A stretch of 64,000 nt of DNA from Asaia bogorensis (GCA_945901855.1 CAMDLT010000020.1:2066-66065), one strand, 5' to 3'. Counted from the first letter of the stretch, positions 2,583-35,320 are shown. Translations and numbers: made by a program. The notes: generated by a model from the letters alone, not told the origin.

Positions 2583-3305
2583 GTGCGCGTCATGGCCGAA
2601 GCCCTCGTCCGCCCGCGCAGCGCCAGATTGCGTTCGCTCCGAAAAGCCGCAGTACCGCGCGCGTTCGAGCAATTGCGCGAAGCGATCGTATCGCTGACTT
2701 TGGCGCCGGGCACGGTACTGTCGCGGACAAAGCTCGCGCGCCAGCTCGGCGTGAGCCAGACGCCCGTCCGCGACGCGCTGATGCGGCTTGCTGCCGAAGG
2801 GCTTGTGGAGGTGTATCCCCAGCATGCCACGGTCGTCAGTCTCATCGACCTGACGGCGGCGCGTGCGGCCCATTTTCTGCGCCGCGCGATCGAGCTCGAA
2901 ATCGTTCGCGAACTTGCGATGTCGCCCGATTCCAAGGTCGTTGCCGAACTGCGCGCGTCGCTTGATCGCCAGCGGCGCATCGCAAAGGCCGGCGAGCTCG
3001 GCGCTTTCGCGCACGAAGACCAGGCATTCCATCGCCGCATGTACGAAGCGCGCCAAGTTTTAGACTTGTGGCATTTGGCACGCCGCCAAAGCGGCCAGAT
3101 CGACCGACTGCGGCGCTTGCATTTGCCGGCCCTTGGCAAGGTGCAGATCATTCTCGACGACCACCAGGCGATCGTCGACGCGATCGCCGAACGCCAGCCC
3201 GAAGTAGCGCAGGCATTCTTGCGAAAGCATCTTTCGGGCACGCTTGCCAAGATCGAAAGCCTGAGCGCGCGCTTTCCCGAGTACATCCGCAAAACGCCCG
3301 ATTGA
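2583..3305 (+). CDS. GntR-family transcriptional regulator (FadR/FCD-type C-terminal domain)
   Basis: 240 aa. The N-terminal winged-HTH pattern (..LREAIVSLTLAPGTVLSRTKLARQLGVSQTPVRDALMRLAAEGLV..) is followed by a helical effector domain. The start could be ATG 2592. Confidence 0.85.
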   Translation: MRVMAEALVRPRSARLRSLRKAAVPRAFEQLREAIVSLTLAPGTVLSRTKLARQLGVSQTPVRDALMRLAAEGLVEVYPQHATVVSLIDLTAARAAHFLRRAIELEIVRELAMSPDSKVVAELRASLDRQRRIAKAGELGAFAHEDQAFHRRMYEARQVLDLWHLARRQSGQIDRLRRLHLPALGKVQIILDDHQAIVDAIAERQPEVAQAFLRKHLSGTLAKIESLSARFPEYIRKTPD

Positions 3306-3379
3306 CACACTGATATATTACAGCCTAAATACAGTTCATTCGAAGCGTCGGAAAGGCGCTCGAGCAACGGGAGGAAACC

Positions 3380-5335
3380 ATGGCCGATATCGAAGACACC
3401 TCTTTCGAAAGCGCCGTTTCACGCCGCCATTTGCTGCAAGGTGCGGCAAGCGTCGCGGTACTGGCGGCCGCGCCGACGCTCGTCGCGGCACAGGCTGCGC
3501 CCAAGGAAGCGCCTGAACTCGCGCGCATGGTTGCCGAGGGACGCCTGCCGCCGCTCGCCCAGCGCCTGCCGCAAAGTCCGCTCGTGATCACGCCGCACGA
3601 AACCGTCGGCCGCTACGGCGGCACGCTTCGCCGCGGTCTGCGCGGTTCGGCAGACCATAATGGCATTCTGCGCATGGTCGGCAACCAGGGCCTGGTGCGC
3701 TGGAACTTGGAATTCACGCAAGTGATGCCGAACGTTGCCGAACGCTGGGAAGTCAATGCGGCCGCGACCGAATTCGTCTTCCATCTGCGCGCGGGCATGA
3801 AATGGTCGGACGGCAAGCCTTTCACCGCCGACGACATCGTTTTCGCCATCGAAGACTGCACCAAAAACTCCGAGCTTTATCGCTCGGTGCCCTCGGTGCT
3901 GACGATTGGCGGCAAGCCCGTCGTGGCTTCGAAGGTCAGCGACACGGCCGTCAAATTCACGTTTGAAGCGCCCTATGCGATGTTCCTTGAGAACCTCGCG
4001 ACGCCGCTTGGCCAGCATCCCACGCTGTTCGCTAAGCATTATTGCAGCCAGTTCCATCCTAAGTACAACACCGGGCTCGACGCGCAAGTGCGCGCCGCCA
4101 ACATGTCGGACTGGCCGACGCTGTTCCGCGCGCGCTGCGGGGACATCGAAATTCCTTCGCGCTGGAGCAACGCCGAAAAGCCCACGCTCGACCCGTGGAC
4201 GATCGCAGAGGCCTACACGGGCGGCGCCACCCGCGTGACGATGCGCCGCAATCCTTATTTCTGGCAGGTCGATACTTCGGGCGCGCAGTTGCCCTATGTT
4301 GACCAGCTGACGATGAACATCTCCCAGGACGTCGAGTCGCTGATGCTCGATACGATTTCGGGCCGTATCGACATCCAGGACCGCCACATCGACTCGCTGC
4401 AGAACAAGCCGACGCTGTCGCAGAACATGCAGCGCGGCGCTTACCGGCTCGTCGAACTGGTCGCCTCCGGCGCGCAGCAATGCATGATCTATCTGAACAT
4501 GACGCACAAAGATCCCGCGATGCGCGCCATGTTCGCCAACAAGGAATTCCGGCAGGCGCTGTCGCTCGGCATCGACCGCAAGGAAATCATCGAGCTGGTC
4601 TATCTGGGCCAGTCGGAGCCCTATCAGACTGGGCCGCGTCCGGGCCATCCCTGGTACCATGAAAAGCTCGCGCGCCAGTTCACGGCCCACGATCCGGCCC
4701 AGGCCAACGCAATCCTCGACCGGCTCGGCTATCGGCGCGGACCCGACGGCATGCGCGTGCGTCCCGACGGACAAAAAGTATTTTTCGGCATCGACGTGAT
4801 CCCGACGCTCTATCCCGACGCGGTCGATACGCTCGAACTCGTCAAGCGTCACTGGAACGTTCTTGGCGTCGATATCAAGGTCAACACGATCGAACGGGCG
4901 CTCTACTACACGCGCGGCGACAACAACGACCACGACGCCGCAACGTGGCCCGGTCCGGGCGGTCTCGATCCGATCCTCGACGCGCGCGACTATTTGGCCC
5001 AGCATCCGCAAGGCTCGCGCTACGCCATTCCGTGGACCCAGTGGTACGTTTCGGGCGGCAAAGAGGGCATCGAACCTCCCGAAAGCCAGAAGCGTCGCAT
5101 GAAGCTGTTTGACGATGCGCGCGCAACACCCGACATCGCCAAGCGCGGCGCCGTCGTCAAGGAACTGCTGGACCTTACTGCCGATGCGTTCGAGACGATC
5201 GGCGTGTGCCTGGCTGTGAATTCGTTCGGCATCGCCAAAAACAACTTGCGCAACGTGCCGCTGAAGATGCCGCAATCCTGGAGCTGGCCCAATCCCGGCC
5301 CGGCCTTGCCGCAGCAGTTCTTCTTCTCGAGCTAG
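3380..5335 (+). CDS. ABC transporter substrate-binding protein, family 5 (Dpp/Opp-type), Tat signal
   Basis: 651 aa. Twin-arginine leader SRRHLLQGAASVAVLAAAP..AQA. Typical family-5 SBP length and motifs, and it precedes two permeases and an ATPase. Confidence 0.85.
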   Translation: MADIEDTSFESAVSRRHLLQGAASVAVLAAAPTLVAAQAAPKEAPELARMVAEGRLPPLAQRLPQSPLVITPHETVGRYGGTLRRGLRGSADHNGILRMVGNQGLVRWNLEFTQVMPNVAERWEVNAAATEFVFHLRAGMKWSDGKPFTADDIVFAIEDCTKNSELYRSVPSVLTIGGKPVVASKVSDTAVKFTFEAPYAMFLENLATPLGQHPTLFAKHYCSQFHPKYNTGLDAQVRAANMSDWPTLFRARCGDIEIPSRWSNAEKPTLDPWTIAEAYTGGATRVTMRRNPYFWQVDTSGAQLPYVDQLTMNISQDVESLMLDTISGRIDIQDRHIDSLQNKPTLSQNMQRGAYRLVELVASGAQQCMIYLNMTHKDPAMRAMFANKEFRQALSLGIDRKEIIELVYLGQSEPYQTGPRPGHPWYHEKLARQFTAHDPAQANAILDRLGYRRGPDGMRVRPDGQKVFFGIDVIPTLYPDAVDTLELVKRHWNVLGVDIKVNTIERALYYTRGDNNDHDAATWPGPGGLDPILDARDYLAQHPQGSRYAIPWTQWYVSGGKEGIEPPESQKRRMKLFDDARATPDIAKRGAVVKELLDLTADAFETIGVCLAVNSFGIAKNNLRNVPLKMPQSWSWPNPGPALPQQFFFSS

Positions 5336-10461: not shown

Positions 10462-11184
10462 ATGGCATCCACATATTCGGACGCGGTGCGCGAACAGCTG
10501 TTGGGCGTAAGCACCGCGACCTTGTGCACGGCCTTGTTCAAGCGCGGTCTGCGCAACCAGTTTGTCCAGGATGTGCGCCCGCTCGCATCCGATTTGCCCA
10601 ATATGGTCGGGCCTGCCTACACGCTGCGCTACATCCCCGCGCGCGAAGACTTGAACACCATCGCCGTGTTCCAGGATCGCGCGCACCCGCAGCGCAAGGC
10701 GGTCGAAGAATGTCCGCCCGGTTCCGTGCTGGTTATCGACAGTCGCAAGGATGCGCGCGCAGCGTCGGCGGGCGGAATTCTGGTCTCGCGCTTGATGAAG
10801 CGCGGCGTTGCCGGCGTCGTGACCGATGGCGGCTTTCGCGATTCGCCCGAGATCGCGGCGCTGCCTTTTCCTGCCTACCACCATCGTCCGTCCGCGCCGA
10901 CGAACCTGACGCTGCACCAGGCCGTCGATATCGGCCTGCCGATCGCCTGCGGCGATGCGGCCGTGTGGCCAGGCGACATAATTGTCGGCGATCGCGAGGG
11001 CGTGATCGTGATCCCCGCGCACCTCGCAGCGGAGATCGCCGCCGAGGCTGTCGAGATGACGGCGTTCGAGGATTTTGTGTTCGAAAAGATTCTCGAAGGC
11101 CGCTCGATTATCGGTCTCTATCCGCCGACCGACGACATTTCGAAAACCGATTTTGCGGCCTGGCGCATCGCCAAGAACCGCTAG
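10462..11184 (+). CDS. RraA-like / HMG-CHA aldolase family protein
   Basis: 240 aa. The family pattern ..TATLCTAL.., ..GSVLVID.., ..AGGILVSRLMKRGVAGVVTDGGFRD.., ..GDIIVGDREGVIVIP is recognised by eye. It starts 3 nt after the enolase gene stop. Confidence 0.75.
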   Translation: MASTYSDAVREQLLGVSTATLCTALFKRGLRNQFVQDVRPLASDLPNMVGPAYTLRYIPAREDLNTIAVFQDRAHPQRKAVEECPPGSVLVIDSRKDARAASAGGILVSRLMKRGVAGVVTDGGFRDSPEIAALPFPAYHHRPSAPTNLTLHQAVDIGLPIACGDAAVWPGDIIVGDREGVIVIPAHLAAEIAAEAVEMTAFEDFVFEKILEGRSIIGLYPPTDDISKTDFAAWRIAKNR

Positions 11185-12356
11185 ACGTAGCCCGTGCTGC
11201 CGTCGGGTTTGGTCGGTACCTTGCGCTCCCAGTGGACATATCCGTCGCTCTTCAGCACATCTTCGTCGATTTCGACGCCCCAGCCCGGCCGCGCGGGCCG
11301 CAATTCCAGGTGACCGTCTTTGGGCAGATACGGATCGCGAACATAGGGCGCGCCCGCGGAAGGATCGGCGACTTTGTCGTAGTTCGAGCCATGCGGCAGG
11401 CGGTATTCCAGAATTTTGAAATTCGGCAAAGCCGCGCAGAAATGCAGGTTGACCGCAGTGGCAAGCGGACCCATCGGATTGTGGGGGGCTACCGTCACGT
11501 AGTGCGCTTCGGCCAGGGCTGCGATCTTGCGCATCTCCGACAAGCCGCCGACCACGCAGATATCGGGCTGCACGATGTCGGCGCCGCGCACCTGCAGCAG
11601 GCGCAGAAACTCGAAGCGATTATAGAGGCATTCGCCCGTGGCAAGCGGGCAATCGAGCCGCGCTTTCAGAGCACCCCATGCGTCGATGTTTTCCGGCCGG
11701 ATCGGTTCCTCGAAAAACAGCGGATCGTAGGGAGCGAGCGCGTTGCCAAGCTGCACGGCCTGGATCGGTTCGAAGATTTTGGCGTGCGCGTCGAACGCTA
11801 TTTCGTAGTCGGCGCGAACGGTCTCGCGCAGTTTCGAGAAATAAGCCGCGCTTTCGCGCACGACATCGCCCCAGCGCTGGCGGTGAATGTCGCCGCGATA
11901 GGGGCTGAGCTTGAATGCGGTGAGCCCCCAATCGCCGGCAAGCTGGTCGAACGTGTCGCGCGCGATCAGCGGGTCCGGGGCGGTATAGACCCCCGCATAG
12001 ACGCGTACGCGGTCGCGGACATGGCCGCCCAGCAGCTGGTAGACGGGCACACCCAGCGCCTTGGCCGAAACATCCCACAAGCAATGATCGATCGCCGAAA
12101 TCGCCGCCAGGCCCAAGGCGCCGGGCGGAAACCGGCTCTGTTGCAACAAATAGAGGTTCAGATACTCGATACGTCGCGGGTCTTGGCCCGCCAAAAAGAG
12201 CGCCAGATACTCAAGCAGCGGGATCAAGGCGCGATCGGGGCCGTGATTGTAGCACTCCCCCCATCCGGTGATGCCCTCGTCGGTGTCGATCGCAACCAGT
12301 ACGCGCGGCCGATCCTTGTCGCGTGTCATGAAGGCCCTGAGGCGTTGAATTTTCAT
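11181..12356 (-). CDS. enolase-superfamily enzyme (galactonate-dehydratase-like), substrate unknown
   Basis: Trimmed from the 821-aa ORF to ATG 12356 (MKIQRLRAFMTRDKDRPRVLVAIDTDEGITGWGEC..). Motifs ..AIDHCLWDVSAKALGVPVYQLLGG.., ..FDAH.., ..FFEEP.., ..GE.., ..DIVQPD. Confidence 0.85.
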   Translation of the reverse strand: MKIQRLRAFMTRDKDRPRVLVAIDTDEGITGWGECYNHGPDRALIPLLEYLALFLAGQDPRRIEYLNLYLLQQSRFPPGALGLAAISAIDHCLWDVSAKALGVPVYQLLGGHVRDRVRVYAGVYTAPDPLIARDTFDQLAGDWGLTAFKLSPYRGDIHRQRWGDVVRESAAYFSKLRETVRADYEIAFDAHAKIFEPIQAVQLGNALAPYDPLFFEEPIRPENIDAWGALKARLDCPLATGECLYNRFEFLRLLQVRGADIVQPDICVVGGLSEMRKIAALAEAHYVTVAPHNPMGPLATAVNLHFCAALPNFKILEYRLPHGSNYDKVADPSAGAPYVRDPYLPKDGHLELRPARPGWGVEIDEDVLKSDGYVHWERKVPTKPDGSTGYV

Positions 12357-12431
12357 AAATCGATTTTGCACCGCGCGCGGGCGGAAGGCAACTTCCCGCG
12401 CGCACAGGAACGGGATAATCTTTCTGCAGTC

Positions 12432-13796
12432 ATGCCGTTCTCGCCGCTCGATTCCCAGATCTTTGGCCCGCTTTTTGTGCCCGATGCGATGGTTGCCGTT
12501 TTCGGCGACGACGCTTTGCTGGCAGCGATGCTGCGCGCCGAAGCCGCGCTGGCAAAATGCCAGGCGCGTTTGGGACTTGTCCCGCCAAGTTTGGCAACCG
12601 CGATCGAGGCAATCGCGCCCGCCGCCTTTGACAAGGCGGCGCTGGGGGCCGCGACGGCGCTGGCGGGTGTGCCGACAATCCCCTTCGTGAAGGCGCTGCA
12701 AAAACTGCTGCCTGCCGACCTCGAACCCCATCTTCATCTTGGCGCAACTTCGCAGGACATTCTCGATACCGGCCTTGCGCTGCAGATGACGGTTGCGTTC
12801 GATCTGCTGGCGGCCGATCTGGCGGATTTGCTTGCGGCACTCGTGCGCCGCGCGCGCCGCCATGCGGATATGCCGTGCATCGCGCGCACCTACGGCCAAC
12901 ACGCCGCGCCGATCTCGTTCGGCTTCAAGGTTGCCGTGTGGCTCGACGGCATTTGCGATGCAGCCGCCGAGCTTGCGCATCGCCGCGAGATCACGTGCCG
13001 AGCTCAGCTCGGCGGGCCGGTCGGCACGCTTGCGGCTTTTGGCGACAAAGGTCCTGCGCTGTTGGCCGACTTCGCGGCCGAGCTTGGACTTGGCGTGCCG
13101 ACGATCGCGTGGCACGCCAGCCGCGTCAATTTGGTCGGGACCGCCCAGTGGCTTGCAGTTCTCGCGGGCACATGCGCCAAAATGGCGGGCGATGTCGTGG
13201 CGCTCGCCTCGAGCGAGGTCGGCGAGGCAAGTGAACCGCATGTGCCTGGGCGTGGCGGATCGTCGGCGATGCCGCACAAGCGCAACCCGATCGCTGCCGT
13301 TGCTATTTTGGCGAATGCGCAGGCGGCCGCTGGACTGGCTGCGGGATTGAGCGGCAGCTTGGTCGCGGCGCACGAGCGTCCGGCAGGCGCGTGGCATGCT
13401 GAGTGGCATGCGATCGCATCGCTTTTCGGGTGCGCTGCGGGTGCGCTTGCGCATGCGCGCGCGCTGGCCGAAGGGCTTGCCATCGATCCAGCAGCGATGG
13501 CCCGCAATGTGGATCTGACGCGCGGGCTCGTTTATGCCGACGCGGCAGCCGCGGCGCTGGCGCCGACGCTCGGTCGCAGCGCCGCACATGCTTGCGTCGA
13601 AGCAGCGGCAGACAGCGTTCGGCGGACGGGCACGACGCTGCAGCACGCATTGGCAGCCTCCCAGACGGTGCTTTCGTCCGCGGAACTTGCCGCGATTTTC
13701 GATCCGTCGGCAGCGGTAGCTGCTGCTGCCCGTTGGGTCGAGCCAGTCGCACGACGCGCTGATGCGCTTGCAGCCCGGCTGTGCGTGCGGGCATAG
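12432..13796 (+). CDS. pcaB: 3-carboxy-cis,cis-muconate cycloisomerase
   Basis: Trimmed from the 1090-aa ORF to ATG 12432. It carries the fumarate-lyase superfamily signature GSSAMPHKRNP and a PcaB-like N-terminus (..LHLGATSQDILDT..). It is followed by pcaL and pobA. Confidence 0.85.
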   Translation: MPFSPLDSQIFGPLFVPDAMVAVFGDDALLAAMLRAEAALAKCQARLGLVPPSLATAIEAIAPAAFDKAALGAATALAGVPTIPFVKALQKLLPADLEPHLHLGATSQDILDTGLALQMTVAFDLLAADLADLLAALVRRARRHADMPCIARTYGQHAAPISFGFKVAVWLDGICDAAAELAHRREITCRAQLGGPVGTLAAFGDKGPALLADFAAELGLGVPTIAWHASRVNLVGTAQWLAVLAGTCAKMAGDVVALASSEVGEASEPHVPGRGGSSAMPHKRNPIAAVAILANAQAAAGLAAGLSGSLVAAHERPAGAWHAEWHAIASLFGCAAGALAHARALAEGLAIDPAAMARNVDLTRGLVYADAAAAALAPTLGRSAAHACVEAAADSVRRTGTTLQHALAASQTVLSSAELAAIFDPSAAVAAAARWVEPVARRADALAARLCVRA

Positions 13797-25022: not shown

Positions 25023-25631
25023 TTAGTCGGCGACCACGGCAGCTTTGCGGGCGGCTTTCCGGGTTTGGTGCCGATGCACGAGGAAAACCAAGCCCGTTGA
25101 AACCACGAAGACGCCCAACATGACATAGAGGAAGGAATGGACGATATCGCCGATCATGGCGTCGAGCGCGCGTCCAAACAGATAACCGAAACCCGCAAAC
25201 GTGGATGCCCAGACGAATGCCGCGACGAAATTGAGGGCGGCAAATCGCAGCGGGTTGATGCGCGCGACGCCCATCGCAAATGACGCAAGGTTCCGTACGC
25301 CATAAATGAACCGGAACGACAGGATGAACCACGTATCGTAGCGCTTGAGCAGGTCGAGTGCGCCGTCAACGCCCGCGCGCCATTTGGGACGCTTTTCGAG
25401 CAGAGCGCTGCCGTATCGCCGACCGATCCAGAACCACATTTGGTCGCCGGAGAAACTTCCGAACCAAGCCGTGAGCAGCAAAACCCAAATATTCAGCGTA
25501 TCTTGGGCGGCAGCCGCACCGGCAAAAATGACGAAGGTTTCGCCTTCCAAAAACGTCCAAACAAAAATTACCGCGTAAATCAGGACGCCGTATTGTGCAA
25601 CGAGGCTTTGAACATCGGTCGAGGGTTCCAA
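25023..25631 (-). CDS. DedA-family (VTT domain) membrane protein
   Basis: 202 aa. Family pattern ..FLEGETFVIFAG......W..GSFSGDQMWFWIGRRYG.. Confidence 0.8.
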   Translation of the reverse strand: MEPSTDVQSLVAQYGVLIYAVIFVWTFLEGETFVIFAGAAAAQDTLNIWVLLLTAWFGSFSGDQMWFWIGRRYGSALLEKRPKWRAGVDGALDLLKRYDTWFILSFRFIYGVRNLASFAMGVARINPLRFAALNFVAAFVWASTFAGFGYLFGRALDAMIGDIVHSFLYVMLGVFVVSTGLVFLVHRHQTRKAARKAAVVAD

Positions 25632-25745
25632 GCGACTGTCCTTACATCGAGATTGTCGGTCGTTTTTATGCTACAAATGGGCTATGACGCTATCATGTTC
25701 CGGTCTCGAAAAAAGATGCACGAACGCGATTTTCGGAGATTTGCG

Positions 25746-25994
25746 ATGAACGGTTATTCGGTTTTTGTTGCAATAGTGGCGCTTGGCTTGGGTATCGGAA
25801 TAGGTGCGCCGCCCGCACTGGCGGCCGACGATCCGCGCTCCAACAATGCGCCGCCAAAGGTCAATAAAGAGGCCGAAGAGCTCAATACCCGCAATCCGCG
25901 CGTGTTTCATGCGGGTCCCGGAAAGCCAATGGCAGGTGGAGTATGGGTTGCGCCGTCAAGCATACCCAAGAAACCCGCGGCTGACGCCAAATAA
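25746..25994 (+). CDS. hypothetical small secreted protein
   Basis: 82 aa from ATG 25746. The signal peptide is MNGYSVFVAIVALGLGIGIGAPPALA/ADD and the mature part is Pro/Lys-rich. The start is uncertain because the ORF is open from 25440. Confidence 0.45.
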   Translation: MNGYSVFVAIVALGLGIGIGAPPALAADDPRSNNAPPKVNKEAEELNTRNPRVFHAGPGKPMAGGVWVAPSSIPKKPAADAK

Positions 25995-25999
25995 TAGGC

Positions 26000-26413
26000 T
26001 TACGGCGAAGATTTAACCGGTACGGCGCTGAATGCAGGCGCCTCGGAGCACTCGGTCACGCCGCCCAGCGTGCGGATGCATCGATAGCGCGCATTGGGAT
26101 CGATTTTGGCGACCGGAAACTCGGGTTCGTTGAAGCGCGCCATTTGTTCGCAGATCAGACGTCGGTCGCCGGTTAAGAACATACCGTCGCAGCGTCCCGG
26201 CAAAAAATTCGGTCCGACTAAAATCGCGGCGCCAACCACGCCCGGCGTCACGATGCTTTGCACGTAAGGGGCAGCAAACGTGCTGACTTTGTCAGGTACC
26301 TTCGATAGCGGAGGGCTGCCGTGAACCGAAGGCAGTTTGGTGCAAGCCGCCGCGAATAGGGCAGCGCCAGCGACTAAACAAACGATCCGAATGGAGCGAT
26401 TTATCTTCAACAT
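26000..26413 (-). CDS. hypothetical lipoprotein
   Basis: 137 aa. Lipobox-like LFAAAC after a hydrophobic leader, with four further Cys in the mature part. No recognisable family. Confidence 0.55.
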   Translation of the reverse strand: MLKINRSIRIVCLVAGAALFAAACTKLPSVHGSPPLSKVPDKVSTFAAPYVQSIVTPGVVGAAILVGPNFLPGRCDGMFLTGDRRLICEQMARFNEPEFPVAKIDPNARYRCIRTLGGVTECSEAPAFSAVPVKSSP

Positions 26414-26466
26414 TTCTAAAATTTATCCCAAATATATTAATGAATGATGAACATACGCTTGAGATT

Positions 26467-27246
26467 TCAAGATTCCCGTCGATAATCATCCAAATCTCTG
26501 AAGAATCTGGAAAAAGCCGATGCCGGTGTCACACCGGTAGCAGCCTCGAAGCGCACAACTTCTTGGAGCGTAAGCCGCTTCACGGGGGCAAAAAGCGTAT
26601 CGAAGATCGCCAAGAAATCGCTTTTGGCGAACTGAGCAACATCGAGACCATCGCCGATTTGGACATATTTGTTGGGGGCAAGGCCGATCGATGTCTGCTT
26701 GTGCTGCATGATGCGAAAGAACCATTCGCGGCGCGTGTCGAAGCGCTGGAACGATTGCGCAATCCGCACGAGCGTCAACCAGAAAATCGTCTGGGCGCGC
26801 GGATCCGAATAAAACGCGTCCCAACCAAAATCGTCGCCGCCTTTGTCGCGCGTTTCCTCCAGCACTTGCGCACAGGCGGCGTTCCATTCGCCTTCTCTCT
26901 CGCCGACCAATGCCTGGACGAAGAAAAAGAAATTGTGGAGCAGACTGCGGTCGAGCTGCGCGGACGCAAAAAAATCGTCAAGCGGATGCACGATCAAACG
27001 GCCGAACGCATTGACGCGACGATGCTGGTTCTGCGACTGGGCAATTGCCGCAACGATTTGGACGAAGACGGCGCGGTAGAAATTTTCGACTTCGCCGGCG
27101 TTTTTCATCGCATCGCCGATACGCGCGAGCTCGTCGTGGCCGACAGTACCGCCGTTTTTTGCGGCGGTTTCCTGGGCGGTCTTCACGAATGCGTCGAGCA
27201 TCGTGGTTGCCGCATGTCGGATCAGTTGGGGGCCTTTTGAAAACAT
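26467..27246 (-). CDS. hypothetical cytoplasmic protein (259 aa), no recognisable domain
   Basis: Codon third positions on the minus frame are strongly G/C-biased when read by hand, unlike the antisense 266-aa ORF. There is no signal peptide or TM segment. It is aromatic-rich (..HNFFFFVQALVGEREGEW..). Confidence 0.6.
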   Translation of the reverse strand: MFSKGPQLIRHAATTMLDAFVKTAQETAAKNGGTVGHDELARIGDAMKNAGEVENFYRAVFVQIVAAIAQSQNQHRRVNAFGRLIVHPLDDFFASAQLDRSLLHNFFFFVQALVGEREGEWNAACAQVLEETRDKGGDDFGWDAFYSDPRAQTIFWLTLVRIAQSFQRFDTRREWFFRIMQHKQTSIGLAPNKYVQIGDGLDVAQFAKSDFLAIFDTLFAPVKRLTLQEVVRFEAATGVTPASAFSRFFRDLDDYRRES

Positions 27247-27351
27247 TCGGACAAGTCTAGACCACTTGGCGCCTCGGGGGGAAATGCTGCGAGGCTTCTA
27301 TCGGACGGATTTCTTGGCTAACATAAGGTTATCTCGGACGAGGATCAAAAA

Positions 27352-28026
27352 ATGTTGGAAATCAAACCAGTCGAAACGTCGGGTGGAATCGCTGTTCTGG
27401 ATGTCGGCGGCGACAAAGCGGGCCAAGCGACTCTTATTTGGGCCGACGACAATTTCTGCGAGGCGTTCGAAGGCGCGACCGTCGGCGCCGCCCCGTTCGG
27501 TGCGGACGCTGACCCGCAAGTGACGGCGGCCTTGGAGGGGTTGAAGCAGGGGGCTGTGGCACGTTTCGATGCGCCGACGGGCACGCTGTTTGGGCATCGT
27601 CTGGAAAGCGCCATCGGCATTGTCGGGCTGGGCGGCAAGCGTGTGCTGCTGGCGCTGGCAACCGCCCCGCAGATGCTGGGCCACACGGCCGATGCGCGTC
27701 TGGCCGAAACGCTCGACGCCGTGCCGGTCGCCGCGAGCATGATCAAAACGAGCGACGGGACGATTTTGTGGCTCAACGAAAATTTTCGGGAGTTGCTGGA
27801 CGGCAGCGAGTTCGATCTTCTGGGAACGTCGTTGGCCGACCATTTTGTGCTGCCCGGCGTATTTGCAACGCTGATGTCGGCAACAGACGCGATTGCGCCC
27901 TCCACGCCTGTCCCAACGCCCCTAAAGACGCTGTCCGGCATCATGACGCCGGTCGTTGCGACTGCAAAACGTATACGGTTTCGCGGTCACGACGCGGCGC
28001 TGGTGTGCCTGGCCAGCGGGTTTTAG
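27352..28026 (+). CDS. hypothetical protein with two PAS-like repeats, no output domain
   Basis: 224 aa. Two internally similar segments (..ATLIWADDNFCEAFEG.. and ..GTILWLNENFRELLDGSEFDLLGTSLADH..) resemble the N-terminal strands of PAS folds. The G/C third-position bias supports coding. Confidence 0.55.
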   Translation: MLEIKPVETSGGIAVLDVGGDKAGQATLIWADDNFCEAFEGATVGAAPFGADADPQVTAALEGLKQGAVARFDAPTGTLFGHRLESAIGIVGLGGKRVLLALATAPQMLGHTADARLAETLDAVPVAASMIKTSDGTILWLNENFRELLDGSEFDLLGTSLADHFVLPGVFATLMSATDAIAPSTPVPTPLKTLSGIMTPVVATAKRIRFRGHDAALVCLASGF

Positions 28027-28034
28027 CGCGGGTT

Positions 28035-29105
28035 CTAGATCCCGGATTTGCGCGCGGCTTCTTCGAGTTCGTCGATCATCTGCATGCCCGGGACGACCTC
28101 CGAGCGCACGAACTCGAGGCGCTTGTTGGGGCCGCCGCTGGCGGTTGGAAACCGGTCGCGCCATAGCTGCATTTTGACCGACAGCCCGCAGAGCACGCCG
28201 CCGATCGAGCGGTGGTTCGAGAACACCATATCCTTCATGCGGCTGAAGCTGTCGGCGTTGATATCTTTCCAGAAATCGGCGCTCTTGCGGTTAAAAGCTT
28301 CGAACCGGCCCGTCAACGAGATGATCACGCCCGACATCGAATCTCGGGTCTTGTCCAGCATCTGCTTGGACATGCGATCGCCCTTGATCATCTGGTTGTC
28401 GTCGAGCGGCTTGACCCAGTCGAGAAAACTTTGGACCTGGGGCACGACCTTGTCGAGGCACGAGCGGAAATAGGCCAGCGACAAAAACGTATCGCCGTAA
28501 TCTTCGAGGAAGCGCGGAATTTCGGTCAGCGGCACGTTCAGCTTTTGGGACATCATGCGCAGATTCTTGAGCGCATCGTCGCGATTGGGCGCGGTGAGCA
28601 GCTTCATGATGTCCGAAACGTCGTTCACCTCGAAATCCGCCGTGCCGTAGATCTGCTGTATCAACGGATGGGTAAACACCTTCATGTGTTGCGTAAGTTC
28701 TTGGCGTTTGCCTTCCGAAAGCTGCAATTCCTTGTTGACGTCGATATTGAGAGAGAGCGAACGCAGCGCAACGCGCAGCGTGTAGACGTCGAAAGACGGA
28801 ATGGCGCTCAGATTTTGCAGCAGCGGCATGTCCTTGCGCAGTTCGGTCGCACAGCTTTGGAAAACGCTGTGCAATGCGTCGAGGGGAACTTGCGCCGATT
28901 TGTGGCCTTGGTATTTGTAGAGTTCGACAACCGAATCGAGCCGCACGTTCTTTATGAGACGCAGCCTGCGCAACCCCGGCGTTTCGAGCGGGATAATGCT
29001 GAGGGGCAAGATATGAAGCGCATCTTGACCCTCCGCATCGTATTCGGCATTGGCAGCTTCGCCTGAAGCAGGCGTCGGACCATCGATCTTGGTGCTTTGT
29101 TCCAT
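28035..29105 (-). CDS. hypothetical cytoplasmic protein (356 aa), no recognisable domain
   Basis: Long protein-like ORF 77 nt downstream of the CheZ-like gene on the same strand. It has an acidic N-terminus, no TM segment or signal peptide, and is largely helical-looking. Confidence 0.6.
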   Translation of the reverse strand: MEQSTKIDGPTPASGEAANAEYDAEGQDALHILPLSIIPLETPGLRRLRLIKNVRLDSVVELYKYQGHKSAQVPLDALHSVFQSCATELRKDMPLLQNLSAIPSFDVYTLRVALRSLSLNIDVNKELQLSEGKRQELTQHMKVFTHPLIQQIYGTADFEVNDVSDIMKLLTAPNRDDALKNLRMMSQKLNVPLTEIPRFLEDYGDTFLSLAYFRSCLDKVVPQVQSFLDWVKPLDDNQMIKGDRMSKQMLDKTRDSMSGVIISLTGRFEAFNRKSADFWKDINADSFSRMKDMVFSNHRSIGGVLCGLSVKMQLWRDRFPTASGGPNKRLEFVRSEVVPGMQMIDELEEAARKSGI

Positions 29106-29182
29106 GTTGAGCGCTTTTTACGCCGTAAGAGCCGTCAATACCAGCCCCGATCTTGGTCTGCGGTTGTTGGCGCGTCCGCGCA

Positions 29183-30076
29183 TCAGTCGAAAAGCTTGTC
29201 AATATCCGCCTGCGACGCCGTCGCGCCAGCAGTGGCGGGCGCGGGAGAGGGCGGCGCTGGCGGCGGCGTAGCTTGTTTGGCAGCTGCCGGGGGCGGGGCG
29301 GGCGCTGGGGCGGGTGTCGGCGGTGCTATGGGTGCGGGTGCGTCAAACCCTGCACCGGCCAACAGCGCGTCGATCTCATCTTGCGTGCGGCCTTGGCCGG
29401 GCATAGCCGGTCCATTCAACAGATGCGCATCGCCGCGGGTGTCGGCATTTGCATCGCGTTTTGCAACGCCGCCCGGCAGATTCTCGGCGCCCCAAATTTC
29501 GACCATCGCGTTGACGCGCTGGTCGATATAGCGAAGCGTGCTGACGACTTTGGAGATGCGCTGGCCGGTAATATCTTGGAACGAGCAGGCCGTAAAAATC
29601 TCGGTTGCTTGGTCGCTCAGCACCTGGCCTGCTTCGGCGCATTCGGTCGGAAGATTTCCGGCAACTTCCATAATGCGCTCGGCTGCATTGAGAATATCCG
29701 AGGTCGCGCGCTCGGTCGAAGCCACGATCATGTCGAGCTCGCTGGTCGCGCTGTTGATGCGGTTGTCGGTAACGGCGAGTTTCGGGTCCTTGTTGTAGAT
29801 CGAAGCGATTTCGGATTTTGCGGCCTGGATATGGGCGGCCATGCTTTGCAATTCGGCACGCAGCACATCGATGCTCTGGGTTTCCTTGGCACTCGACATT
29901 TGCTTGATCGTCCACTCGCGGAACGAGGCGGCGATGCGCCGCGCTTCGTCGAGCGCCACTACGCGCGAGCGCACGTCGCGGGCGCGCAAGAAGGCGCGGC
30001 CGCGCGTGCTGTTCAACAGCGCGTCCTCGATGGCGAAATATTCTTCGTCCGAAAGTTCGATCTTCGTCATTGGCAA
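29183..30076 (-). CDS. cheZ: CheZ-family phospho-aspartate phosphatase with C-terminal Pro/Ala-rich extension
   Basis: 297 aa. ..ACSFQDITGQRISKV.. matches the CheZ catalytic signature (E. coli AQDFQDLTGQVIKRM). ..LLNGP.. is also conserved. ..QDEIDALLAGAGFD resembles the E. coli C-terminal CheY-binding peptide QDQVDDLLDSLGF. Confidence 0.8.
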   Translation of the reverse strand: MPMTKIELSDEEYFAIEDALLNSTRGRAFLRARDVRSRVVALDEARRIAASFREWTIKQMSSAKETQSIDVLRAELQSMAAHIQAAKSEIASIYNKDPKLAVTDNRINSATSELDMIVASTERATSDILNAAERIMEVAGNLPTECAEAGQVLSDQATEIFTACSFQDITGQRISKVVSTLRYIDQRVNAMVEIWGAENLPGGVAKRDANADTRGDAHLLNGPAMPGQGRTQDEIDALLAGAGFDAPAPIAPPTPAPAPAPPPAAAKQATPPPAPPSPAPATAGATASQADIDKLFD

Positions 30077-30134
30077 CCTGCAGATAAAAGATGTGGCGTG
30101 ACGCGCAAGCTAGTCGGAATTGGCTAAGAACGGG

Positions 30135-31277
30135 TTAAAGTTTGCCCTCGATGGCGGCTCTGAAAATTCGCTCAAGGTCGCCATGCTCGACTTTGCAGGG
30201 ATTGCCGCCTGCCGACGGATCGGCCGCCGCCATCGCCCCGATTTCGGCCGCCCGCGACGTATCGATCCCCAGCATGGCGAGCGTGGGGGGAATTTTCAAC
30301 AGGTCGCGAAACTGCAAGACCCAAGCAAAGACCGTATCGAAATCGGCGCGCGGCAAATCGAGGGAACGCGACAAGTTCGGCATACGCGCGGCGATCGCAG
30401 CGCGATTGTGGCGCATGACATAAGGCAGCAAAATAGCGTTGGTCAGACCGTGATGCGTGTCGTAGACGGCACCGATCGGATGGGCAAGCGCGTGGACGGC
30501 GCCAAGCCCCTTTTGGAAGGCGACGGCACCCATGCTGGCGGCGGCCAGCATCTGCGCGCGCGCTTCGATGTCGGCGCCGTTGGCGACAGCGCGTGGCAGA
30601 AACTCTTTCACCAGGCGCATGCCTTCGAGCGCGATGCCATCGGCCATGGGATGGAATCCGGGCGCGCAATAGGCCTCGAAGCAATGCACGAACGCGTCGA
30701 CGCCCGTCGCGGCCGTCATATGCGCAGGCAGGCCAATGCTCAGTTCCGGATCGGCGATCACGATGCCGGGCATCATTTGTGGGTGAAAAATGATTTTTTT
30801 GACGTGCGCCGCCTCGTCGGTAATGACCGAAGCACGTCCGACTTCGGAGCCCGTGCCGGCGGTTGTCGGCACCGCGACGACCGGCACCATCGCGGCCGGA
30901 TCGACGCGCTTGAAATTATCGCCGACATCCTCGAAGTCCCAGAGCGGCCGCGTCTGGCGGGCCATCAGCGCGATGGCCTTCGCCGCATCGAGGCCCGATC
31001 CGCCGCCAAACGCGATAACGCCGTCATGCGCGCCCGCGCGCAAGGCCGCGACGCCGTCGGCAACGTTGGTACCCGTCGGGTTGCCGCGGACTTTGGCAAA
31101 AAGCGTCGCGCCCGAGAGGGCCAGCGCTTTTGCTACCATCGGCGTCGATGCAAGTCCTGCATCCGTGACCAGCAGCGCATTGGCAATGTGCAGGCGCTTG
31201 AGCGCTGCGGGCAATTCGTCCAACCGACCTGGCCCCGACCAGATTGTCGTGGGGTAGTTCCAATTGCCCTTTACCAT
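30135..31277 (-). CDS. iron-containing (group III) alcohol dehydrogenase
   Basis: 380 aa. Motif GGGSGLDAAKAI and metal-ligand His pattern (..AHPIGAVYDTHHG..). Confidence 0.85.
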   Translation of the reverse strand: MVKGNWNYPTTIWSGPGRLDELPAALKRLHIANALLVTDAGLASTPMVAKALALSGATLFAKVRGNPTGTNVADGVAALRAGAHDGVIAFGGGSGLDAAKAIALMARQTRPLWDFEDVGDNFKRVDPAAMVPVVAVPTTAGTGSEVGRASVITDEAAHVKKIIFHPQMMPGIVIADPELSIGLPAHMTAATGVDAFVHCFEAYCAPGFHPMADGIALEGMRLVKEFLPRAVANGADIEARAQMLAAASMGAVAFQKGLGAVHALAHPIGAVYDTHHGLTNAILLPYVMRHNRAAIAARMPNLSRSLDLPRADFDTVFAWVLQFRDLLKIPPTLAMLGIDTSRAAEIGAMAAADPSAGGNPCKVEHGDLERIFRAAIEGKL

Positions 31278-31291
31278 CGCAGCCGCCCGCC

Positions 31292-32722
31292 TCAGATGAT
31301 TTCGAAATAGCGCTGCAGCTGCCAGTCGCTGATCGCTTTATTCGCCTCACGCTGTTCCCAGTCGCGGCTGGCGGCATAATGCGCGACGAATGGTTCGCCG
31401 AACAGGTCTTTGGCGACCGACGAGGCGGCCAATCGCGTCGCAGCTTCGCCCAACGTGCGCGGCAACTGCAATTCGGGCGGCGGAACCAGATCGTAGGCGT
31501 TGCCGACGACCGGGGCCGTCGGTTCGATCTTGTGCTCGATACCCCACAGTCCGGACCCAAGGGCCGCAGCAAGTGCGATGTAGGGATTGATATCGGCCGC
31601 GGCGACCCGGTATTCGACGCGCTGCGACTTCGGCGCGCCGGGGATTGCGCGTAGCGCCGTGGTGCGATTGTCGATGCCCCACAGCGCCGCTGTCGGGGCC
31701 CAGAAACCGGGGACAAGTCGCGTGTAGGAATTTACCGTGCAGGCCACCATGGCGAGCAACTCGGGCATCAGCTTTTGCTGGCCGCCGATGAAGTGGCGCA
31801 TCGTATCTGAAATGCCATGCGGCTTGGTTTCGTCGTGAAAGACGGGCCCACCGGCCGCGTTCTGCAGCGACAAATGCAGATGGCCCGACTGGCCCGGCCA
31901 GTCGTGCGACCATTTCGCCATGAATGTTGCCATACGATTTTGGCGTTGGGCGAAAACCTTGGCGAAGGTTTTGAACAAAGCGGCTTTGTCTGCGGCGGCG
32001 ACGATATCGTCGTAGAGCAGCGCCGCCTCGAGCACGCCCGCGCCCGTCTCGGTGTGCAGGCCTTCGATCGGCACGTCCATCGCGCGCATCGTGTCGAGCA
32101 GCGCGTGATAGAATTCCGCATGCACGGAACTGCGCAGCATCGAATAGCCAAAAGACCCGGGCGTAAGAGTCTTCAGGCCGCGATAGTTTTTCTCGCGCAC
32201 CGATACGGGCGTTTCCTCGAACACAAAGAATTCGAATTCCGCGGCTGCTTTGGCAGCAAGCCCCATGTCGGCCGCGCGCTGGACGACGCGCCGCAACGTG
32301 CCGCGCGGACAAACGGTTTCAGCCCGACCCGCAAATTCGGCCAGAAAAAGCAAGGTTGACGGCTCGAACGGGACCGCGCGGCAAGTCTCGGGCAGCACGC
32401 GAACCGGCGCGTCGGGATAGGCGGTGTGCCAGCCCGTGTATGTCGCGCAATCGTAAAGCTGGTCGTTCGAATCCCAGCCAAGCACAACGTCGCAAAATCC
32501 GAATCCGGTCTGCAGCACGGAGCGGAATTTCTCGCGCGACAGATATTTGCCGCGCATGACTCCGTCGATATCGAACAGACCGACTTTCACATTGTCGATT
32601 TTGCGCGCGTCCAGCAGGGCGGCGGCTTGTTCGGCAGTTTTGACGTCGCGGGGTCCGGTTGCGGGCTCCCGGTCGCCGGCCAGATCAGGCGGCACGGCGC
32701 AGATCCAGTCGGCTCCAGACAT
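31292..32722 (-). CDS. glutamine synthetase-family ligase (gamma-glutamyl-amine synthetase, PuuA/IpuC-like)
   Basis: About 476 aa. GS catalytic-domain collinearity (..[13 protein letters not shown].., ..[17 protein letters not shown].., ..NSYTRL.., ..WG.DNRT.ALR.., ..R.EYR....D.NPY..). The start is uncertain (32740, 32722 or GTG 32695), and all three options overlap the hemA 3' end. Confidence 0.8.
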
Positions 32723-33902
32723 CAACCAGCGCCTCGACAAGCTGATCCATCAGCCCATCGTCGTGGAAGGGGGTGGCGGTCAAACGCAGCCGTTGCGTGC
32801 CGCGCGGCACGGTCGGGAAATTGATCGGCTGGACATAGATCGATTTTCGCATCAGCAGTTCGTCGCTCGCCTGTTTGGCGAGGCGCGCGTCGCCGACGAG
32901 CAACGGCACGATGTGCGTGGCCGACGGCATCACCGGCAGTCCTGCTTGGACCAGCAACCGCTTGAGGCGTTCGGCGCGTTCGGCCAGTTTGGCGCGCGCG
33001 GCTTGGTCGCTTTTGAGATGGCGGATGGCGGCACGCGCACCGGCTGCCACGACCGGCGGCATCGAGCTCGAGAAAATGAAGCCGGGGGCCGTGCTGCGGA
33101 CAGCATCGCACAAAGCCGTCGAAGCCGCGATATAGCCGCCGACCACGCCAAAGCCCTTGGCGAGCGTGCCTTGCACAATGTCGAGGCGCGCTTGCGCGCC
33201 ATCGCGTTCGGCAATGCCGGCGCCGCGCGCGCCGTAAAGACCGACCGCATGCACTTCGTCGAGATACGTCATCGCATCGTATTTTTCGGCGAGGTCGCAA
33301 AACGCGTGGATCGGCGAAACGTCGCCGTCCATCGAATAGACGCTCTCGAACGCGATCAGCTTTGGGCGCGACGGTTCGATCGATTGGAGCTGGGCTTCGA
33401 GATCGGCCGCATCGTTGTGGCGAAAGACGAGTTTGTCCGCGCCCGAATGGCGAATGCCTTCGATCATCGAGGCGTGGTTGAGCGCATCGGACAAGATCAC
33501 GACGCCTGGCAGCAGCCGCCCGATCGCCGACAAAGCCGCCTCGTTGGCGTTGTAGCCGGAACTGAACACCAAGGCCGCCGGCTTGGCATGCAGATCGGCC
33601 AGTTCGCGCTCGAGCAAAACATGCTGGTGGTTGGTACCGGAGATGTTGCGCGTTCCGCCCGCACCGGCCCCGTTCGCGACGAGCGCCGCCTGCATGGCGG
33701 CAAGCGTGTCGGGATGCTGGCCCATGCCCAGATAGTCGTTCGAGCACCATACGACGATGTCGCGCGGTCCCTCCGGCGAATGCCAAGTCGCATGCGGAAA
33801 GGCGCCGCATTTGCGCTCGAGATCCGCAAACACGCGGTAGCGGCCTTCGGCCTTCAAAGCGCCGATGGTGTCGGAAAAATAGCGTTCATAGTCGCGTCGC
33901 AT
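32685..33902 (-). CDS. hemA: 5-aminolevulinate synthase
   Basis: 405 aa. Classic ALAS N-terminus (..[17 protein letters not shown]......[15 protein letters not shown]..) and PLP-Lys region ..[13 protein letters not shown].., collinear with alphaproteobacterial HemA. Confidence 0.9.
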
Positions 33903-33922
33903 CGCCCCAGTCCCCCGAAATG

Positions 33923-35320
33923 TCAGTCAAAAAAACCTTTGGCGCGCGCAACTTCTGCACCCTCGGCAAGGCCCTTGGCAAAGCGCGCGAACAATTCATC
34001 TATCCCCGCCTCGTCGATAATCAATGGCGGGCACACCGCCACGCGATTGTCGAAGAGGCCGCGCACCATCAGCCCGTTGGCTTCGCAGGCTTTGGCGATC
34101 AAGGGGGCGACGGCTTGGCTTGGCTCGAACATCGTCTTGGTCGTTTTGTCTTTGGCAAGCTGCAGGCTGCCAATCAGCCCCACACCCGTGGCATGACCGA
34201 CGATCGGATGGTCGGCGAGTTTTTGGAGCGCGGCTTGGAAGCGCGGCGCTACGCGCCGGACATGGCCGACGATGTCGCGCTCTTCGTAGATGGCCAGCGT
34301 TTCGAGCGCGACAGCGGCAGGCACAGGGTGAGCCGTATAGGTGTAACCGTGCCCGAAAGTACCGATCTTCGCGCTGTTGGCCTGCATGGCCGCATAGATC
34401 GGCTCTGAAATCAGCACGGCCGAGATCGGCAAGTACGCCGACGACAGCGCTTTGGCGCAGGTCAAAATATCGGGCACGATGCCGTAAGTCTGGCTGCCCC
34501 ACATGTTGCCAGTGCGCCCGAAGCCGCAAATGACCTCGTCGGCGACCAGCAAGATGCCGTATTTTTTGAGTACGGCTTGGATCTTCGGGAAATAGCCCGC
34601 GGGCGGCACGATGACGCCGCCGGCCCCCATGACGGGCTCGGCAAACATCGCAATGATGGTTTCGGGATCTTCGGCCAAAATCAGTTTTTCGAGATTTTCG
34701 GCGAGCCGCGTCGAATACTGTTCCTCGGTTTCGCCCGGCAATCCGCCGCGATAGAAATCCGGCGTTTCCGCGTAAGCGACCGGGAAGATTGGTAGGTCAA
34801 AGTCTTTTTGATTTGCCGGAAGTTTGGTGAGCGATGCGGCCGCGATCGTCACGCCGTGATATGCCTTCTCTCGGCTCAAGATTTTTTTGCGCCTGGGCGT
34901 GCCCGCCGCGTTCGCGATGTACCAAAGAATCTTGATTGCCGTGTCGTTGGCTTCCGATCCCGAGTTGGCGAAGAAGACCTTCGACATGGGCACGGGCGCA
35001 AGTTCTTTGAGCTTTTCGGCAAGTGCGATGCCCGGCTCGTGCGACTTGCCGGCGAAGATATGGTAAAACGGCAATTGCCGCATTTGCTTGTGCGCAGCAT
35101 CCGCCAGGCGCGCCTCGTCGAAGCCAAGAGAAGCGCACCACAGGCCCGCCAAGCCCTCGATATAGGTCTTGCCATTGTCGTCGACGACATAGATGCCATG
35201 GCCCTTCGCCATGATGACTGGCCCATCGCTCTCGTGGGCGCGGAGATTCGTGTAGGGATGCACGAGCGCTGCAATGTCGCGCGCTGCCAGCGAGTTGCCG
35301 CGTGGGCGTAAGTCGTTCAT
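33923..35320 (-). CDS. class-III (omega) aminotransferase
   Basis: 465 aa. Motifs ..[13 protein letters not shown].., ..[11 protein letters not shown].., ..[10 protein letters not shown].. (PLP Lys). It resembles beta-alanine/putrescine-pyruvate transaminases. Confidence 0.85.

Follow-up and report, generated by a model that had tools for sequence, protein, structure and literature searches.

The 64-kb window analysed here, a stretch of 64,000 nucleotides from Asaia bogorensis (GCA_945901855.1, CAMDLT010000020.1:2066-66065), contains between its DedA and Fe-ADH genes a block (25632-30134) that encodes a CheZ-family phosphatase among proteins of no recognised family, referred to below by their lengths in amino acids (aa). 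A preliminary description, made from the sequence alone, took this block for a self-contained signalling module. Our data show that the block is composite, and that its conserved unit consists of cheZ, the gene for a 356-aa helical protein and the gene for a 224-aa PAS-like protein, a triad that ancestrally belonged to a cheA–cheW neighbourhood. We consider it probable (roughly 0.6) that two unrelated units were joined here by a lineage-specific rearrangement and that the triad is the core of a chemotaxis accessory locus. The triad is a lineage-specific variant of such a locus rather than a self-contained new system. Evidence for a functional link between its genes consists of gene order, drawn from a little-studied, mostly uncultured clade.

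Conservation of the cheZ–356–224 triad

We compared 80 genome loci, each containing a homologue of the 356-aa protein, onto which the window proteins, together with CheA, CheW and a solute-binding protein (SBP) from a relative, were mapped by tblastn. The closest clade comprises 17 species (L013-L029), represented by metagenome-assembled genomes labelled Tagaea, Telmatospirillum or Rhodospirillaceae within the Rhodospirillales, and is called the Tagaea clade below. The arrangement cheZ→356→←224 is contiguous in all 17 species and in metagenome loci L004-L009. Conservation of gene order had been proposed as the check on whether these genes are neighbours by chance, and the order of cheZ, 356 and 224 is kept in 17/17 species.

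What lies beyond the 224-aa gene differs between members of the clade. In 14 of the 17 species this gene is the last of an operon, SBP–cheA–cheW–224, with all genes on the same strand; the CheA protein of these relatives has Hpt, dimerisation and ATPase domains, two CheW stretches and a receiver. In the other three species, as in the window and metagenome locus L009, a 259-aa gene, a lipoprotein gene and DedA occupy the cheA–cheW position. Pairwise identities of the three triad proteins resolve subclades A (the 259 type), B and C (both of the cheA–cheW type), with C outermost. Since outgroup C and subclade B both have adjacent cheA–cheW genes, that arrangement is ancestral and that of the window is derived. 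On the other flank, Fe-ADH precedes cheZ in subclades A and B and is missing in C, and the triad is the only part kept through the rearrangements on both flanks. The placing of the system outside a canonical chemotaxis operon thus has to be revised, as in 14/17 species the PAS-like gene ends a cheA–cheW operon and the window shows a derived state.

No cheY, cheB, cheR or methyl-accepting chemotaxis protein (MCP) gene was found within 10 kb in the loci of the relatives. When metagenomes were scanned with CheA, cheA–cheW pairs of 50-71% identity were found in other bacteria, with the triad near none of them among the matches listed. Where checked, these related operons continue with cheY–cheB–cheR, so that the 224-aa gene of Tagaea holds the slot that is normally that of cheY. 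Upstream of cheA, the SBP gene (3302-4579 (+) in L007; orthologues in L004, L008 and L015-L029) encodes an NMT1_3/TAXI-type domain that has a transmembrane segment on either side, the first at the N-terminus, and the product ends in a cytoplasmic tail of ~80 residues. As there is no MCP nearby, this membrane-anchored SBP protein is a possible non-MCP sensor for the CheA of the relatives. The usual association of this type of CheZ is shown by Rhodovastum (Acetobacteraceae), where cheY–cheZ lies beside a hybrid cheA–cheW–cheB–cheR cluster and flagellar genes. The cheZ gene of the window adjoins Fe-ADH and the 356-aa gene with no cheY beside it, and no receiver domain was found in Pfam scans of the window.

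The CheZ protein has an intact catalytic motif and two CheY-binding-type peptides

That the block encodes a clear CheZ homologue is borne out by a match to PF04344 of 59.0 bits (cut-off 30.7 bits) over residues 146-244, and the protein is an ordinary member of a known family. The equivalog CheZ models of NCBIfam stayed under their cut-off (42 bits vs 257). By phmmer, residues 47-244 align to residues 27-214 of Escherichia coli CheZ (1KMI). The catalytic motif A163-C-S-F-Q-D168-I-T-G-Q172 (nt 29561-29590) keeps AxxFQ-DxxxQ intact, its ACSFQ fitting the AxxFQ of the AxxFQ/DxxxQ motifs defined for CheZ (PMC7750401), and its FQDITGQ aligns with FQDLTGQ of the E. coli protein (D143, Q147). A family alignment showed this motif to be invariant in 13 clade members and in Aerophototrophica. 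Judged by its sequence, the protein carries every feature required for activity.

A first CheY-binding-type peptide, TQDEIDALLAGAGF (residues 231-244, nt 29345-29386), aligns with the C-terminal CheY-binding peptide of E. coli CheZ, SQDQVDDLLDSLGF. After a Pro/Ala-rich linker of ~40 residues follows a second, ASQADIDKLFD (residues 287-297, nt 29186-29218 (-)), and both are conserved across the clade and Aerophototrophica. E. coli CheZ, by contrast, has a single such peptide and lacks the 53-residue C-terminal extension present here. The two proteins also differ in their N-terminal parts, where an additional segment, LSDxEYFAIEDALLNS-RGRAFLR (LSDEEYFAIEDALLNS-RGRAFLR in the window), is kept throughout the clade and Aerophototrophica. 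Their similarity as whole proteins is weak (E 0.004), the Pfam match falling mainly in the C-terminal half of the protein. A tblastn search of plasmid sequences with CheZ found no copy on an Azospirillum chromid, a result that is uninformative on chromosomes.

The 224-aa and 356-aa proteins

The family of the 224-aa protein is small, with 31 clusters whose members are all ~224 aa long. It had been described as a double PAS protein; we found PAS resemblance, and that weak, in the C-terminal residues ~116-224 only, and hhalign gave a probability of 2.6% for the N-terminal against the C-terminal half. Residues 1-110 had no PAS match in the Pfam scan or the family profile search. One residue of the PAS-like part, H164, is near-invariant. 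PF08448 scored 20.3 bits on the window protein, below the cut-off of 23.1 bits; several family members have precomputed matches to PF13188, PF08448 or PF00989, and the family profile weakly matches the PAS domains of PpsR and FixL (E 1e-4 to 8e-3). The 224-aa and 356-aa genes converge across a gap (28027-28034) that is comparably short elsewhere: of six loci checked, L004 and L006-L009 have 6-12 nt, and L005 has 132 nt. With the two stop codons 8 nt apart in the window there is no space for separate terminators, so the transcripts probably overlap.

Searches detected 980 homologues of the 356-aa protein, all of them lacking Pfam domains, and its relatives are spread over 530 species genomes. 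A Pfam scan of 51 family members gave no match; the name DUF3150, which stands on one NCBI homologue record, was rejected for the family since it is absent from that scan. A confident AlphaFold model (pLDDT 81.5, pTM 0.78) shows long helices that come after a small beta element at the N-terminus. For the 356-aa and 259-aa proteins alike, profile searches of the PDB gave nothing below E 0.03, and the best Foldseek match to a solved structure had an E of 0.17. Both families are real, helical and uncharacterised.

Among the 80 genome loci, Aerophototrophica is the only case beyond Tagaea in which the 356-aa gene lies near cheZ, a weak match in L063 aside. The arrangement there is a different one, with 1.3 kb between a cheZ homologue (43-46% identity; PF04344 42 bits) and that of the 356-aa gene: in Aerophototrophica crusticola (L003 7078-9309 (-)) a gene for a 415-aa pentapeptide-repeat protein comes after the cheZ homologue, and the two converge on the 356-aa homologue. 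The third gene of that locus thus encodes a pentapeptide-repeat protein, where Tagaea has the PAS-like protein. The remaining 61 of the 63 further loci, which include Azospirillum, Niveispirillum, Nitrospirillum and others, show variable neighbours. In Azospirillum these are HSP20–DUF1150, with an MCP–PilZ gene as well in a subset; in Nitrospirillum and Indioceanicola, ornithine decarboxylase and CcmAB are among them, accompanied by either an aminotransferase or a GAF histidine kinase.

The left unit and the base composition of the block

The remainder of the block, on the DedA side, is a separate syntenic unit, since the group around the 259-aa gene is found elsewhere in other genomes. On the Tagaea chromosome OZ257249 the 259-aa gene, lipoprotein, small open reading frame (ORF), DedA, EamA, TusA and Sulf_transp lie together at 2.25-2.27 Mb (L010), ~55 kb from the CheZ locus at 2.18-2.20 Mb (L020). 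Homologues of the 259-aa protein away from the triad are those of L010 and L012 (63-66% identity) and of Ferrovibrio (L011; 33%), the contexts in L011 and L012 being unrelated. Synteny of the lipoprotein gene with DedA and the 259-aa gene is seen in L006, L009, L010, L013, L014 and L019, and a small ORF takes the position of the 82-aa gene in L006, L009 and L010. The left unit is accordingly a group of envelope genes and a gene of unknown function that travel together in the genus, with no signalling link demonstrated, and the 259-aa gene, which had been counted as a partner in the module, drops out of it because its homologues in other genomes lie away from the CheZ locus. In one subclade-A relative (L006 5232-6857 (-)) a dCache_1–HisKA–HATPase sensor kinase gene, absent from the window, is inserted between the lipoprotein and 259-aa genes.

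An initial search found 23 close clusters for the 259-aa protein and an exhaustive profile search 353 clusters at 50% identity. Conserved motifs of the family include NFFFF/PGFF, FxWD/ExxY and RREWF. Some members (five were read) have long disordered, low-complexity N-terminal extensions rich in Pro, Ala and Lys; ten long members scanned for informative fused domains had none, and no Pfam match. The 82-, 137-, 259- and 356-aa proteins have no Pfam or NCBIfam match, in agreement with the preliminary description, and nothing in PADLOC or PHROGs. A defence-system or phage origin of these genes was considered and rejected on the same zero matches to PADLOC and PHROGs.

At a GC of 0.580, against 0.622 for the window, the block is less GC-rich than its surroundings and ranks among the bottom 4% of 4.5-kb windows; the spacer at 26414-26466 is as A/T-rich as had been noted (GC 0.25). 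The claim of A/T-rich third codon positions holds for one half of the block only: GC at third positions (GC3) is 0.55-0.67 in DedA, the small ORF, the lipoprotein and the 259-aa gene, whereas the values for the PAS-like (0.73), 356-aa (0.76) and CheZ (0.71) genes are normal, like those of the flanking genes. The low overall GC of the 356-aa gene stems from a second-position GC of 0.36, which reflects amino-acid composition. With normal GC3 in the three core genes, the data do not support the block as a compositionally distinct island.

Conserved elements in the junction spacer

The 105-bp divergent spacer between the 259-aa and 224-aa genes is the rearrangement junction. The palindrome GTCTAGAC (27255-27262) and the GCCTCG/CGAGGC hairpin (27271-27295) are where the preliminary description had placed them; RNAalifold showed no covariation support for the hairpin. 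Three motifs, AAGTCTAGACC (27253-27263), GGGAAATG (27279-27286) and TTCTTGGCTAACAT (27311-27324), are conserved in all five aligned subclade-A loci, even though identity of the 224-aa protein among these loci is no more than 57-73%. Among the loci searched, the first motif (AAGTYTAGACC) and TTCTTGGCTAACAT are present only in these five. Within the window, TTCTTGGCTAACAT occurs once exactly, with one more match at two mismatches (2 vs 0.13 expected). These motifs are probably promoter or operator elements that were created or retained at the junction.

A related element, CCTTGGCTTGA-N17-GCTAAA, is present in the cheW/224 spacer of loci of the cheA–cheW type (L007 7935-8000; equivalents in L015-L024). 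The related elements in both types of spacer suggest that, whichever the arrangement, a separate promoter serves the 224-aa gene. The same cheW/224 spacer has a short inverted repeat as well (CTTCGCG...CGCGAAGGGG), which overlaps the ribosome-binding site; the two elements may act as an internal promoter and as a hairpin controlling translation.

Weighing the possible explanations

In the history that we favour, the ancestral operon would have encoded a membrane-anchored SBP sensor, CheA, CheW and the PAS-like protein, and would have abutted cheZ–356. In the subclade of the window, cheA–cheW would then have been displaced from the locus by the left unit, leaving the PAS-like gene with its own promoter, newly gained or retained, in the 105-bp spacer so formed. 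From its sequence, CheZ is predicted to be an active phosphatase, acting on CheY or on the receiver domain of CheA, both encoded outside the window. The PAS-like protein may be a cytoplasmic sensory or regulatory accessory of the CheA/CheW/CheZ pathway. The weakest step is that of the 356-aa helical protein, which might serve as a scaffold or partner of CheZ, for example in its localisation; the idea is attractive because alphaproteobacterial CheZ has no binding site for CheA-short and the partner that localises it is unknown (PMC7750401, PMC8563088). Several observations weigh against this reading. The 64-kb window has no cheA, cheW, cheY or MCP gene, so that the partners of the pathway are unseen; gene order can stay conserved inside a single genus-level clade even where the genes are not functionally linked; and the PAS-like protein lacks an MCP signalling domain. 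Moreover, there is no cheZ within 10 kb of the 356-aa gene in 61 of the 63 further genome loci, the weak match in L063 excepted, and given such cheZ-free loci the function of the 356-aa protein may be unrelated to chemotaxis. Its partnership with CheZ is argued from adjacency in two genera, against a wide occurrence with no cheZ beside it.

The main rival is that the gene order is merely inherited: CheZ would work as a stand-alone phosphatase for a distant CheY, the 356-aa protein would have a housekeeping-type role and the PAS-like protein would be an unrelated small sensor. This is a serious if somewhat doubtful explanation. It accords with the spread of the 356-aa family over 530 genomes, where a nearby cheZ is mostly lacking and the neighbours vary, with cheZ–356 spacers of 42-93 nt that permit separate promoters, and with alphaproteobacterial CheZ being known to work as an orphan gene (PMC8563088), but it leaves unaccounted for a triad that outlasted rearrangements on both sides, a cheZ and 356-aa gene that are also close, in a different orientation, in Aerophototrophica, and a PAS-like gene that is operonic with cheA–cheW in 14/17 species. 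That last fact, together with 259-aa homologues that lie away from the triad (L010, L011, L012) and the ~55 kb between the two loci in OZ257249, also makes it very improbable that the PAS-like sensor, CheZ, the 356-aa and the 259-aa proteins form a four-protein module that needs no chemotaxis operon to act on a response regulator, despite the adjacency of the four genes in the window, L009, L013, L014 and L019, the conservation of the spacer motifs in all five of these loci and the lack of other che genes across 64 kb. Of the self-contained module proposed at the outset, what stands is a conserved gene group around a real CheZ (17/17 species); membership of the 259-aa gene and independence from cheA–cheW ancestry do not. 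Least credible of all is a horizontally acquired, lower-GC genomic island that brought in foreign signalling genes. The low GC of the block and its A/T-rich spacers are what such an island would show, but GC3 is normal in all three triad genes, both units are syntenic throughout the clade, and no tRNA, no flanking or border repeat and, in the Pfam scans, no integrase or transposase gene marks the block, which has no PHROGs or PADLOC match either.

A stronger version of the favoured reading would make the 356-aa and PAS-like proteins unrecognised chemotaxis components, the former localising or regulating CheZ, as ChePep does in Helicobacter, and so resolving a question that has been raised for Azorhizobium CheZ, and the latter providing, at the position of cheY, a non-MCP cytoplasmic input that couples an intracellular signal (for example redox or energy) to CheA(receiver)/CheW/CheZ. 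We regard this as an unlikely, speculative extension. Were the link functional, the triad would supply candidate genes for how alphaproteobacterial CheZ, whose partner is unknown (PMC7750401), is positioned and regulated, and the relatives would have an unusual cheA–cheW operon in which a PAS protein replaces CheY and a membrane-anchored SBP is perhaps the sensor.

Comparison with known chemotaxis systems

Against the suggestion that the system may be undescribed, orphan cheZ genes of Alphaproteobacteria, normally paired with an orphan cheY, have already been described (PMC8563088, PMC7750401). The orphan cheZ of Azorhizobium caulinodans (Liu et al., cited in both papers) lies, like ours, away from the main che cluster, and its product shares with the present protein the order AxxFQ before DxxxQ (here ACSFQ-DITGQ), a C-terminal CheY-binding peptide, a long N-terminal helix region and the lack of the E. 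coli CheA-short binding motif. With that motif missing, localisation of CheZ must depend on something else. The described alphaproteobacterial cheZ genes adjoin an orphan cheY, whereas the gene downstream here is that of the 356-aa protein, with no cheY; the Pro/Ala-rich extension ending in a second binding-type peptide and the adjacency of the locus to cheA–cheW in relatives are further differences.

The cheA–cheW genes of Tagaea resemble the F5-type operon cheA–cheW–cheY–cheB–cheR, as in Azospirillum Che1 and the che cluster of A. caulinodans (PMC10782961), in that CheA has two CheW domains and a C-terminal receiver and is followed by cheW. The CheA–CheW pairs of 50-71% identity elsewhere run on into cheY, cheB and cheR as the F5-type operons do. 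Tagaea differs in having the PAS-like gene after cheW rather than cheY, the membrane-anchored NMT1_3/TAXI-type SBP with its cytoplasmic tail before cheA, and no cheY, cheB, cheR or MCP within 10 kb, and the window differs further in having no cheA–cheW. A functional analogy is offered by CheZ(HP)–ChePep of Helicobacter, in which, according to the summary in PMC7750401, CheZ needs for its polar localisation a partner protein that is specific to the lineage and otherwise uncharacterised. The 356-aa protein would be a candidate counterpart of ChePep by analogy only, no sequence or structural relationship being claimed, and its family is also widespread without an adjacent cheZ. New here are a CheZ with what appear from the sequence to be tandem binding-type peptides, a conserved cheZ–356 pair that converges on a PAS-like gene replacing cheY after cheA–cheW, and two sizeable families (356-aa and 259-aa) for which Pfam and NCBIfam have no model.

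Gene map and other features of the window

The ORF positions of the preliminary description all agree with our ORF map (Table 1), and its spacings of 77 nt (CheZ–356), 8 nt (356/224, convergent) and 105 nt (224/259, divergent) are exact. It counted seven ORFs between DedA and Fe-ADH, where the map gives six.

Table 1. Features of the block and its bordering genes (window coordinates).
Feature	Position	Strand	Basis and remarks
DedA	25023-25631	-	ORF call; left unit
82-aa secreted protein	25746-25994	+	ORF and translation; signal peptide ...PPALA/AD; left, non-signalling unit
137-aa Cys-containing lipoprotein	26000-26413	-	Lipobox FAAAC; left unit
259-aa cytoplasmic all-helical protein	26467-27246	-	Broad uncharacterised family; left unit
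Divergent 259/224 spacer, 105 bp	27247-27351	.	Rearrangement junction with three conserved motifs
224-aa cytoplasmic PAS-like protein	27352-28026	+	PAS-like residues ~116-224 (nt 27697-28023)
356-aa cytoplasmic helical protein	28035-29105	-	Downstream of cheZ; conserved hypothetical family, Azospirillaceae-like Rhodospirillales
CheZ-family phospho-CheY phosphatase	29183-30076	-	297 aa from TTG start; ATG at 30070
Fe-ADH	30135-31277	-	ORF call

The genes of the window (~56) were called with a codon-usage model and then scanned against Pfam. They are transport and metabolic genes, and the scans, in keeping with what had been stated for the 64 kb, revealed no other che gene, no MCP or flagellar gene and no receiver; tblastn queries with CheA and CheW also gave zero matches in the window. 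A scan for consensus promoters and terminators gave counts not above shuffled-sequence expectation. The gap from Fe-ADH to cheZ is only 58 nt, so read-through transcription is possible. Fe-ADH, whose best NCBIfam match, under the cut-off, is 4-hydroxybutyrate dehydrogenase, belongs to a same-strand run at 30135-35320 (-) with a class-III aminotransferase, a class-I/II aminotransferase and a glutamine-synthetase-like gene; cheZ–356 stands at the 3′ end of this run, which looks like an amine or gamma-glutamyl catabolic operon. Elsewhere in the window, the 686-aa ORF called at 11181-13241 (-) has its MR_MLE enolase-superfamily domains confined to residues 304-662, with the N-terminal ~300 residues unassigned, and may be an over-extended start call or a fusion.

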